A DNA stretch of 64,000 bases, from the UHGV virus genome UHGV-0348865; one strand, given 5' to 3'. Position 1 is the first letter of the stretch. Each line of letters opens with the position of its first letter. Source of the stretch: a virus. Positions 55,125 to 57,234 of this stretch are shown in pieces. The position numbers were made by a program, and so were the translations under genes. The notes under the pieces were generated by a model, which saw only the letters and a program-made list of their open reading frames with translations, did not search any database and was not told where the DNA came from.

Positions 55125-55203
55125 TCAATGGGTGCCTCTGACAAAGGGGCACAATTTAAAGGTTAATTAGATGAAAGGGTTTACCCTTCAGGTGGATTAG
55201 AAA

Positions 55204-57234
55204 ATTTGTGGCATCGTATTAGCTGGCGGTAATCTGTCAAGCACTGATTTAGACGTATTTAACCAACTCTTTTATGCTGGGGTATTCCGAGGGCAACATT
55301 CCTCTGGTATCTTTGGTCAGCGTAAGAGCACTAAGGAAGTCTTCACTTATAAAGAGGCACTTCCTTCTTTCGCATTCATCCTACAAGATGAGTACAAGAA
55401 GCATACCACTGGTGAAACAGCTTACACTGTAGCGCCTTCATGGATTGTTGGTCACAGCCGTCATGCAACGAAAGGTGCAGTTAACGCCAAGAACGCCCAT
55501 CCTTTCCAACATGGTAACATCACTCTGGTTCATAACGGAACCTTGATGGACCAAGATCTGTTACCTGACAGCAAAAACTTCGAGGTAGACAGTGAGAACA
55601 TCTGCCACTCTATTAACACTATTGGTGCAGCAGAGACTATTCAAAAGCTAGATGGTGCTTTCACCTTAATCTGGCATGATGCTTCTGATAACCGTCTTCA
55701 TATCATCCGTAACGAAGAGCGTCCATTCCACCTCGCACGTTGCAACAGAGATTGGTTTGGTGCTTCTGAAGAAGATATGTTGATGTGGATTCTTAAGCGT
55801 TCTAAGTCTCATAAGAATCGTATTGACGAGCATTTTGAATGTAAAGTCGGTACAGAGTATATCTTTGATATGTCAAACAACAGCATGACTTTGGTTGAAG
55901 AGGTCGCCCACGAGCTTCCGGTTTTTACGGTAGCCAATCGTTGGGGCAATTATTACTCGAACAATTACAGCCAAAGCAACTATCAAAGTTCCTCAAAAAG
56001 CAGTACAAGCAATCCTTACGACACGAAGCCGGGAGTGACAGCGGCAGACGTTCGTCGAAGAAACGCAGTGGTAAGTCAAAACAAAATCGCAAGCGATCGA
56101 AACATTGATATTCGCCGCGATATGACTGTGGAAATCACTCCGCATGAGTTCGTTCCTTATGCAACCGCTGGTGCTGTTCCTTCTCGTGGTAAGATGATTG
56201 GTTATATCTACGATGAGAAGTCTCAAGAGTACATTGAAGGTGACGTTCATAACGTAGACATTAAGGCTTATCAGGATGCCCTGAAAGACCCTAAAATTGT
56301 TTACCGTGGGACAGTATCCTGCATCTCCGAAGTTAATGCTATGGTTCGTCTAGTGATCACAGCAGGTCGTTTTGTTGACCCCTCTCTGGAGAAAAGGGAG
56401 CCTGAGTCAACTACTGCTGACTTCGATGATGATATCCCTTTTGATATGAATGATAGTTTCGTCAACAAGAATGGCGTTACTATCACTCGTAAATTCTGGG
56501 AAGCGCACTCTCATGGTGATTGTGGTGGTTGTGATAAGCACATTGATTGGAAGGATGCACCTAAAGCAGTCTTTGCATATCAGTGCTATTGGCATCCTGA
56601 GTGTCTGGAAGGTTTGACTAAACCTAAAGAGGAAGAAGAGGAGGAAACTCCTATTGGTGTTTGTGAAATCTGCGGTGAAGTTAAAACAGAGAATGAGTTC
56701 GATGATGAACTCAGTCGTCTTCGTGGTGAAGATATCTGTAAAGTCTGCGCTGTAGAAGTAAAGAAGAAAGTATCTAATGCTACGATCAAAGATGGTTATG
56801 TATGGATTAAAGCAACAGATACAACAAACGCCCGTCGTCCTGAATTTGCTTTACGTGTAACTGAAGATATGATCGGTCGTATGACTGTATTACCTTCCTC
56901 AGCGAAACAGACAGGCATCACTCTGGAGGATGTTGTTGATGCTTATGTTGAGAAACGTAGCAACAGTATTTTTGCAATCTCAACTAAGCCAAAAAAGGAG
57001 GAACCTGCTGAGAAAGCAGGTGTGTTTCCTGAATCACGAACAGCTCTCCGCAAAACTGTTGTTAGCTTCGACGGAAACCGAAGCACTGACTTCACCAAAG
57101 CCATGTGGTCAACCCTCGGCTACTGCTCAGAGTGTTTTAAGCAGATTCCGTGGCGCGATGCTGAAAGTTGTACGCTTGGTTCTATGAATCAAGTTTATTG
57201 TAATTCTCCTAAATGTTCATTGAATAGAGGTTAA
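55204..57234 (+). CDS. class-II (Ntn) glutamine amidotransferase domain protein with Cys-rich C-terminal region; non-canonical start
   Basis: Frame open from 55201; begins (I)CGIVLAGG with catalytic Cys at residue 2, then GHSRHATKG...NAHPF...HNGTL; no in-frame ATG/GTG/TTG before 55543, so an ATT start at 55204 is inferred. Confidence 0.6.
   Translation: MCGIVLAGGNLSSTDLDVFNQLFYAGVFRGQHSSGIFGQRKSTKEVFTYKEALPSFAFILQDEYKKHTTGETAYTVAPSWIVGHSRHATKGAVNAKNAHPFQHGNITLVHNGTLMDQDLLPDSKNFEVDSENICHSINTIGAAETIQKLDGAFTLIWHDASDNRLHIIRNEERPFHLARCNRDWFGASEEDMLMWILKRSKSHKNRIDEHFECKVGTEYIFDMSNNSMTLVEEVAHELPVFTVANRWGNYYSNNYSQSNYQSSSKSSTSNPYDTKPGVTAADVRRRNAVVSQNKIASDRNIDIRRDMTVEITPHEFVPYATAGAVPSRGKMIGYIYDEKSQEYIEGDVHNVDIKAYQDALKDPKIVYRGTVSCISEVNAMVRLVITAGRFVDPSLEKREPESTTADFDDDIPFDMNDSFVNKNGVTITRKFWEAHSHGDCGGCDKHIDWKDAPKAVFAYQCYWHPECLEGLTKPKEEEEEETPIGVCEICGEVKTENEFDDELSRLRGEDICKVCAVEVKKKVSNATIKDGYVWIKATDTTNARRPEFALRVTEDMIGRMTVLPSSAKQTGITLEDVVDAYVEKRSNSIFAISTKPKKEEPAEKAGVFPESRTALRKTVVSFDGNRSTDFTKAMWSTLGYCSECFKQIPWRDAESCTLGSMNQVYCNSPKCSLNRG

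Follow-up and report, generated by a model that had tools for sequence, protein, structure and literature searches.

Initiation of translation at AUU has been experimentally confirmed for only two genes of Escherichia coli, infC and pcnB. In both, the AUU stands behind a Shine-Dalgarno (SD) sequence and no canonical start is available in its place; the start is weak, being discriminated against by initiation factor 3 (IF3), and is thought to limit or regulate expression. Published measurements in E. coli put initiation at AUU and AUC at 1-2% of that at AUG, with Met as the N-terminal residue. The gene considered here, which lies at 55204-57234 of a 64,000-nucleotide stretch of the virus genome UHGV-0348865 (the whole stretch being called the window) and encodes a class-II (N-terminal nucleophile, Ntn) glutamine amidotransferase, shows the same arrangement and very probably uses AUU 55204 as its initiation codon, with removal of Met exposing the catalytic Cys1. 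It differs from infC and pcnB in being a phage early-operon gene known from its sequence, in having a start whose position is fixed by the requirement that Cys become the first residue once Met is removed, and in that ATT or ATC recurs at 18% across its family, whereas in infC and pcnB the AUU is one conserved feature of the orthologues.

The PurF- and GltB-type enzymes of Bacillus subtilis have the Ntn fold in common with the phage protein and, like it, require Cys1 to be exposed; in their case Cys1 is freed by cleavage of a propeptide. They have a canonical upstream start and an uninterrupted propeptide, whereas in the phage gene a TAG interrupts the only upstream in-frame open reading frame (ORF). 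The rule on which the initial annotation relied, that class-II enzymes need Cys directly after the initiator Met, is thus the usual one but, given these cleaved propeptides, not absolute.

A closer parallel for the annotation problem is ebpA of Enterococcus faecalis: its ATT start is reported to attenuate expression (PMC4447247) and, as in the phage gene, the true ATT lies upstream of an annotated ATG, so that the annotation truncated the protein; that start, which belongs to another organism and another protein, has been confirmed by experiment, unlike the phage start. The nearest described gene is phi32_83 of phage phiEco32, an orthologue with an identical leader and the same annotated ATT, from which the present gene shows no difference of substance: the phiEco32 records (NC_010324 / EU330206) give it (YP_001671828) as a 2031-nt coding sequence (CDS) beginning at ATT. 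The ATT start is, thus, already known, having stood in curated records since the phiEco32 genome; no paper discussing it was found in a literature search, which did not extend to the phiEco32 genome paper. The value of the finding lies rather in the widespread truncation of the annotation, in the frequency of ATT and ATC across the whole family and in the presence of an invariant leader.

Reading frame, catalytic residues and start codon

The features that define the start are as follows.

55190-55195, plus strand: AGGTGG SD sequence, 8 nt before the ATT, homologous to the AGGAtTAtAAn-ATG site of relatives
55198-55200, plus strand: in-frame TAG, closing the frame one codon before the ATT and also ending a mini-ORF
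55204-55206, plus strand: ATT, proposed AUU initiation codon, at the same position as the ATG, TTG or GTG of homologues
55207-55209, plus strand: TGT, catalytic Cys1 (Ntn nucleophile), from profile alignment with Cys1 of GlmS and PurF
55204-57234, plus strand: full-length amidotransferase CDS read from the ATT, 676 codons plus TAA, orthologue of phiEco32 phi32_83
55207-55800, plus strand: class-II (Ntn) glutamine amidotransferase domain, from Pfam GATase_6 and profile matches to GlmS and PurF
55543-55548, plus strand: internal TTG and ATG (Leu113/Met114), the start in most deposited annotations, with a poor SD sequence

From 55198 onward the letters read TAG (55198-55200), AAA (55201-03), ATT (55204-06), TGT (55207-09) and GGC ATC GTA TTA GCT GGC GGT, so that the frame is open from 55201 and encodes K-I-C-G-I-V-L-A-G-G, as the initial annotation had described. 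Its statement that the first in-frame canonical start is TTG 55543 was likewise borne out: the program-made ORF list opens the amidotransferase frame there, no ATG, GTG or TTG stands in frame between the TAG at 55198-55200 and this TTG, and an ATG follows at 55546. The next canonical start, thus, comes 112 codons after Cys1, and a longer canonical ORF is ruled out because the in-frame stop sits one codon upstream of the ATT. The predicted mass is 76.1 kDa for the full-length protein and 63.7 kDa for the truncated model. The window holds 58 open frames of 120 codons or more, and the amidotransferase is the sole true gene among them whose 5' end runs on for long without a start codon; a frame at 3848-4228 (plus strand; 126 codons, 122 of them without a canonical start), considered as a second gene with a non-canonical start, was rejected as a chance frame antisense to a gene of 1488 residues (3776-8242, minus strand).

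The full frame scores 55 bits against Pfam GATase_6 (cut-off 27), as opposed to 23.6 for the truncated model, and 27.4 against GATase_7 (cut-off 25). A search of the PDB with the single sequence gave no matches, and homology to enzymes of known structure came from a profile of 50 diverse family members (A2) aligned against PDB chains, which matched GlmS with E = 1.5e-17 and PurF with E = 2e-14. The Cys encoded at 55207 is position 1 of this profile, is invariant in the 50 members, and is matched in the alignment to the first residue of the mature GlmS (1xff) and PurF (1ecb) of E. coli and of the PurF of B. subtilis (1ao0), from which we infer that Cys1 would be N-terminal in the mature protein. 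Arg28, Asn110-Gly111 and Asp128 are also invariant and align with Arg26, Asn98-Gly99 and Asp123 of GlmS. Since the HNG motif (His109-Asn110-Gly111) is encoded at 55531-55539, ending one codon before TTG 55543, a start at 55543 or 55546 removes Cys1, Arg28 and the oxyanion-hole motif; the GH-R-AT motif is lost as well, confirming that the canonical start would delete the whole nucleophile region.

Comparison of Kuravirus with Suseptimavirus over the 113 codons that begin with Cys1 and precede the internal start gave proportions of synonymous differences (pS) of 0.66-0.78, i.e. saturated, and of nonsynonymous differences (pN) of 0.13-0.16, with a nonsynonymous to synonymous rate ratio (dN/dS) of approximately 0.09 where calculable. 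Because synonymous sites are saturated and pN is low, these codons must be translated in the amidotransferase frame. The remainder of the protein is of a different nature: residues 250-676 (55951-57231) have no Pfam match, the full-length scan returning the GATase families only, and the C-terminal approximately 430 residues are rich in Cys, with CxxC-type clusters (e.g. HGDCGGCDKH...CYWHPEC, GVCEICGEV...CKVCA and GYCSECFKQ...CNSPKC) and an acidic linker, KEEEEEE. As no isomerase (SIS) domain was detected in the Pfam scans, GlmS-type product names, including the 'L-glutamine-D-fructose-6-phosphate aminotransferase' given to phi32_83 and the commonly applied 'glucosamine-fructose-6-phosphate aminotransferase', are unsupported.

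That translation starts at ATT 55204, as the initial annotation had proposed, is supported by positional homology, the upstream in-frame stop, a normal SD sequence, purifying selection and the annotation of the type phage. Homologues have ATG, TTG or GTG at exactly the position of the ATT, behind a homologous AGGAtTAtAAn-type ribosome-binding site, and the ATT itself is invariant in every Kuravirus and Suseptimavirus sequence read and is found also in the Aeromonas phage BUCT695. The 60-mer that spans leader, ATT and Cys is shared by 97 deposited records of phages, 69 of which match it at 100% identity, and the same ATT stretch is present in independent metagenome contigs. Pairing of AGGTGG with the anti-SD sequence was calculated at -5.9 kcal/mol, to be compared with a median of -6.5 kcal/mol for genes of the window and with -3.5 kcal/mol at the internal TTG/ATG. 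The protein has been detected in proteomics of phage SU10, with nine peptides.

In the proposed mechanism, the 30S subunit would bind through AGGTGG (55190-55195) and the initiator formylmethionyl-tRNA (fMet-tRNA) would read AUU, after which deformylase and methionine aminopeptidase would strip fMet and leave Cys1 (55207) with the free amino group needed by the enzyme. Since AUU works at about 1-2% of the efficiency of AUG and belongs to the codon class discriminated against by IF3, the amidotransferase is probably produced in small amounts compared with its operon partners. Some weight has to be set against this picture: the SU10 proteomics table uses a truncated model of 63.8 kDa, the proposed N-terminus comes from sequence comparison, and the low expression is inferred by extrapolation from other genes. 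Tryptic peptides predicted within residues 1-113 are GQHSSGIFGQR, EALPSFAFILQDEYK and HTTGETAYTVAPSWIVGHSR, with CGIVLAGGNLSSTDLDVFNQLFYAGVFR as the N-terminal peptide.

Start codons across the family

Relatives were sampled from viral, metagenome and genome collections and the codon before the Cys was read in each. In 87 non-redundant sequences this codon is ATG in 64, ATT in 13, ATC in three, TTG in six and GTG in one, with no ATA or CTG; ATT or ATC thus accounts for 16 (18%), and in none of these 16 does a canonical start stand in frame before the Cys. The SD sequences of ATT/ATC lineages are no weaker than those of ATG lineages (mean -7.65 versus -6.49 kcal/mol; one-sided p = 0.025, a value to be taken loosely in view of the shared phylogeny of the sequences). 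On a neighbour-joining tree, parsimony gave 11 switches of start codon, a figure that may be too high because distant branches share leaders (18 nt in L089 and L112, and also phiEco32 and BUCT695), so that approximately 8-11 switches are quoted.

Two metagenome contigs, L089 (ATT) and L098 (ATG), encode enzymes 97.9% identical behind unrelated upstream genes, which indicates mosaic recombination exactly at the 5' boundary of the amidotransferase gene. The ORF upstream in L089 ends in ...LLYGVSRRTIYYSIKER before its stop, and may be guessed to encode a homing endonuclease or a helix-turn-helix (HTH) type protein.

In 79 model bacterial genomes, by comparison, non-canonical codons make up at most approximately 0.05% of the starts that have been annotated. 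Part of the excess of ATT and ATC in the present family may be ascertainment: they can be detected here because the obligatory Cys1 pins the start, whereas elsewhere gene callers slide to the next canonical codon.

Some sequences gathered in the sampling are of doubtful origin. Short contigs of the Peptococcaceae metagenome-assembled genome CALKAR01 (L129, L133) are 100% identical to the E. coli phage gene, and several small contigs of the actinobacterial isolate Herbiconiux daphne, NZ_JANLCJ01 (L130-L134), carry 7-11/GAP52-like amidotransferases; both sets have the look of phage DNA that was mis-binned or entered as contamination, and not of host genes.

The leader and alternative explanations

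Upstream of the ATT, the following elements are recognized.

55132-55152, plus strand: strong hairpin after the stop of the upstream amidoligase gene, terminator- or stabiliser-like (-13.9 kcal/mol, z = -4.3)
55154-55211, plus strand: ultra-conserved leader block of 58 nt, longer than any other run of perfect identity in a 7.2-kb alignment with phage ECBP2 that is 65% identical overall
55171-55200, plus strand: in-frame mini-ORF of nine codons, MKGFTLQVD, with its stop 3 nt before the ATT
55172-55190, plus strand: small predicted 7-bp hairpin, UGAA(A)GGG-UUUA-CCCUUCA, covering the AUG of the mini-ORF and an older SD-like GAAAGG

The leader is identical at 48 of 48 positions, with saturation of the adjacent synonymous sites. 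Its conservation extends to BUCT695, the enzyme of which is only approximately 55% identical, with fourfold sites matching at 21 of 48: the block is kept there as ATTAGATGAAAGGGTT(T/A)ACCCTTCAGG(T/C)GGATTAGAAAATTTGTGGCATCGT, i.e. with two changes, the mini-ORF reads MKGLTLQAD, and the stem of the small hairpin is identical, with a single change in the loop. Directly upstream of the leader in BUCT695 (L008, 155-355), in the place of the hairpin of phiEco32-type phages, an unannotated frame ending in ...LSQSKVAKLVGCSQTHVSKLELGKYSL before its stop looks like a small XRE-type HTH protein.

Several candidate roles for the leader were rejected. The small hairpin is not exceptional as a structure (z about -0.1 to -0.3), a predicted pairing of the SD sequence with downstream sequence is not conserved in BUCT695, and an Rfam search of the leader at E <= 1 gave as its best match astro_FSE, with 16 bits against a gathering score of 70, i.e. 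noise. An operator common to several genes was also discarded, as the leader occurs once in the window and its hairpin and mini-ORF part is found only before the amidotransferase in viral contigs.

Termination-reinitiation-coupled cistrons offer a further comparison. In the amidotransferase family the start usually follows the stop of the preceding gene at a distance of approximately 1-2 nt (median approximately 2 nt), and the ATT lineages with long upstream gaps are the phiEco32 group (74-79 nt) and BUCT695, both of which carry the mini-ORF. Ribosomes ending the mini-ORF at TAG 55198-55200 would reinitiate 3 nt downstream at the AUU, a step that would replace the usual stop-start coupling. 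Such a relay, in which translation of the mini-ORF is itself putative, is a tentative proposal drawn from the layout of the leader and, on balance, the less probable outcome. Against it, and unlike coupled cistrons in general, the mini-ORF has a weak SD sequence of its own in the window (-3.4 kcal/mol) and none in BUCT695; ATGAAAGG is present in GAP52 and L112 as well, out of frame in both; the small hairpin is unexceptional, as noted above; and only two variants of the leader exist. Whatever its mode of action, the invariant leader is a compact candidate for a translational control element.

The mini-ORF also bears on the possibility of recoding, which the initial annotation had mentioned alongside a sequencing error. 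Readthrough of TAG 55198-55200 from ATG 55171 would yield a precursor, MKGFTLQVD-X-KI-CGIV..., with a 12-residue propeptide to be cleaved autocatalytically so that Cys1 is exposed, as happens in B. subtilis PurF. The mini-ORF shares the reading frame of the enzyme and is conserved in BUCT695, propeptide-bearing class-II amidotransferases exist, with the solved 1ao0 chain beginning at the mature Cys1, and yields of roughly a percent would be expected of readthrough and of AUU initiation alike. However, an in-frame arrangement is expected by chance in one case out of three, and the two leaders do not count as independent cases. The window, in which TAG is used as an ordinary stop, was found to contain no tRNA genes and hence no amber-suppressor tRNA, and the other ATT/ATC lineages lack an in-frame upstream ORF, with a TAA or TAG 1-21 codons upstream. 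Initiation at ATT or ATC is for this last reason the general solution, and readthrough, conceivable only for the phiEco32-type leader, is very improbable. The probability of an error of sequencing or assembly, the true codon being ATG, is vanishingly small: the rarity of ATT starts speaks for it and nothing further, and it is excluded by the recurrence of the 60-mer in 97 genomes from many laboratories and in independent metagenome contigs, and by the presence of ATT also in Suseptimavirus and BUCT695, where the flanking codons have diverged.

Two further alternatives make use of the internal start. It is highly improbable that the true product is the truncated protein begun at ATG 55546, the 342 nt ahead of it being the untranslated remnant of a decayed N-terminus, although most depositors and gene callers have chosen this start: the 113 codons that it omits are under strong purifying selection with saturated synonymous sites, the frame is intact in all relatives, and the shortened protein falls below the Pfam threshold, is without Cys1, Arg28 and HNG, and would depend on a poor SD sequence at 55546. 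In Suseptimavirus, moreover, the next canonical start is codon 10 and not 114, so that no truncated form is conserved. The 63.8 kDa of the SU10 table, which could be quoted in favour of such a product, is not evidence for it because it is simply the mass of the model searched. The existence of two products, a low-level full-length enzyme from the ATT and a hypothetical non-catalytic C-terminal isoform from the internal TTG/ATG, would fit with the distinct Cys-rich region without a Pfam match and with the presence of the internal ATG, but the position of the internal start is not conserved among relatives and its SD sequence is weak, so that this arrangement too is improbable. Initiation at AUU 55204, with the full-length enzyme as the product, is therefore preferred in what follows.

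Operon context and consequences of the truncated annotation

The window is Kuravirus DNA (Gordonclarkvirinae; a phiEco32-like podophage), and the region is 96-97% identical to that of many phiEco32-type E. coli podophages, e.g. FH3, NJ01 and Paul. The ORF list, depositors' annotations and Pfam place the amidotransferase gene in an early operon, the other members of which are listed here.

52591-53397: COOH-NH2 ligase type 2
53407-54024: ORF without an assigned function
54021-55124, plus strand: Amidoligase_2 enzyme (Pfam PF12224), the upstream partner, with its stop TAA at 55122-55124, 79 nt before the ATT
57239-57472: DUF7195 ORF (62 bits), directly after the amidotransferase
57680-58873, plus strand: ATP-grasp enzyme, the downstream partner, from depositors' annotations and a weak Pfam Dala_Dala_lig_C match

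A small ORF lies between the DUF7195 ORF and the ATP-grasp gene. The pair formed by amidoligase and glutamine amidotransferase has been proposed to modify the cell wall and so block superinfection (Iyer et al. 2009, as relayed by another paper). The RefSeq record of EcoN5 gives the name 'glutamine amidotransferase' to the DUF7195 ORF (77 residues) and calls the true amidotransferase 'aminotransferase'; the product names appear to have slipped by one gene.

The strong hairpin at 55132-55152 is followed by AATTTAAA, and compensatory changes in ECBP2 preserve its pairing; a 'terminator' feature is listed for phage WFI101126 under a match spanning this region. The hairpin could lessen the transcription that reaches the amidotransferase gene or confer stability on the mRNA upstream. 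Promoters of phiEco32 have been mapped experimentally upstream of genes 6, 13, 26, 40, 58 and 68. Near 55100-55200 no match to the phiEco32 gp36-type promoter (tAATGTAtA) was found with at most one mismatch, nor was a sigma-70 promoter found on the plus strand at the locus. On the minus strand, a near-consensus sigma-70-like promoter at 55240-55213 (TTGACA, 16-nt spacer, TACGAT; 10/12) points into the leader and the start codon; it is probably incidental, because its -35 element is not conserved in Suseptimavirus and chance matches are to be expected about twice per kb. In relatives of Grimontviridae type and of a sister clade (L006, L007, L008, L029, L031-L033), a AAATGTAA(A) motif lies approximately 25-45 nt upstream of the amidotransferase start and resembles the core of the gp36 element tAATGTAtA; at the corresponding position the window reads AAAGGTTAA.

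Deposited annotations treat the 5' end of the gene in different ways. Besides phiEco32, the CDS begins at the ATT in SU10 (SU10_085), Bas90 and Bas93, and in Bas91, Bas92 and Bas94 of the BASEL collection it covers the first 60 nt of the ORF. In 47 of the 56 annotated phiEco32-type records sampled (84%) no CDS covers these 60 nt; Paul, NJ01 and EcoN5 are annotated from the internal ATG, and starts are set late by 10 codons in ECBP2 and EK010 and by 11 in BUCT695; the truncation of Suseptimavirus and BUCT695 records amounts to 10-11 codons. Gene callers restricted to ATG, GTG and TTG thus remove the catalytic nucleophile of the amidotransferase, and because the first codons are unannotated the protein found in databases seems to be without catalytic activity and does not reach the Pfam threshold. 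Cloning of the annotated CDS for the study of the amidoligase/amidotransferase/ATP-grasp module would, therefore, express an inactive fragment.

A broader proposal, which is speculative and for which the odds are rather against, is that AUU and AUC have been recurrently selected in this family for very low or IF3-sensitive synthesis of a potentially harmful free glutaminase, with the mini-ORF of the phiEco32-type leader feeding terminating ribosomes to the AUU. In a wider form of the proposal, the amidotransferase family, in which the obligatory Cys1 fixes the true start, would act as a natural ruler, and ATT and ATC starts in phages would be much commoner than gene callers report. With AUU or AUC in about one-sixth of its lineages, the family is a natural system in which to ask why weak, IF3-discriminated starts are selected.

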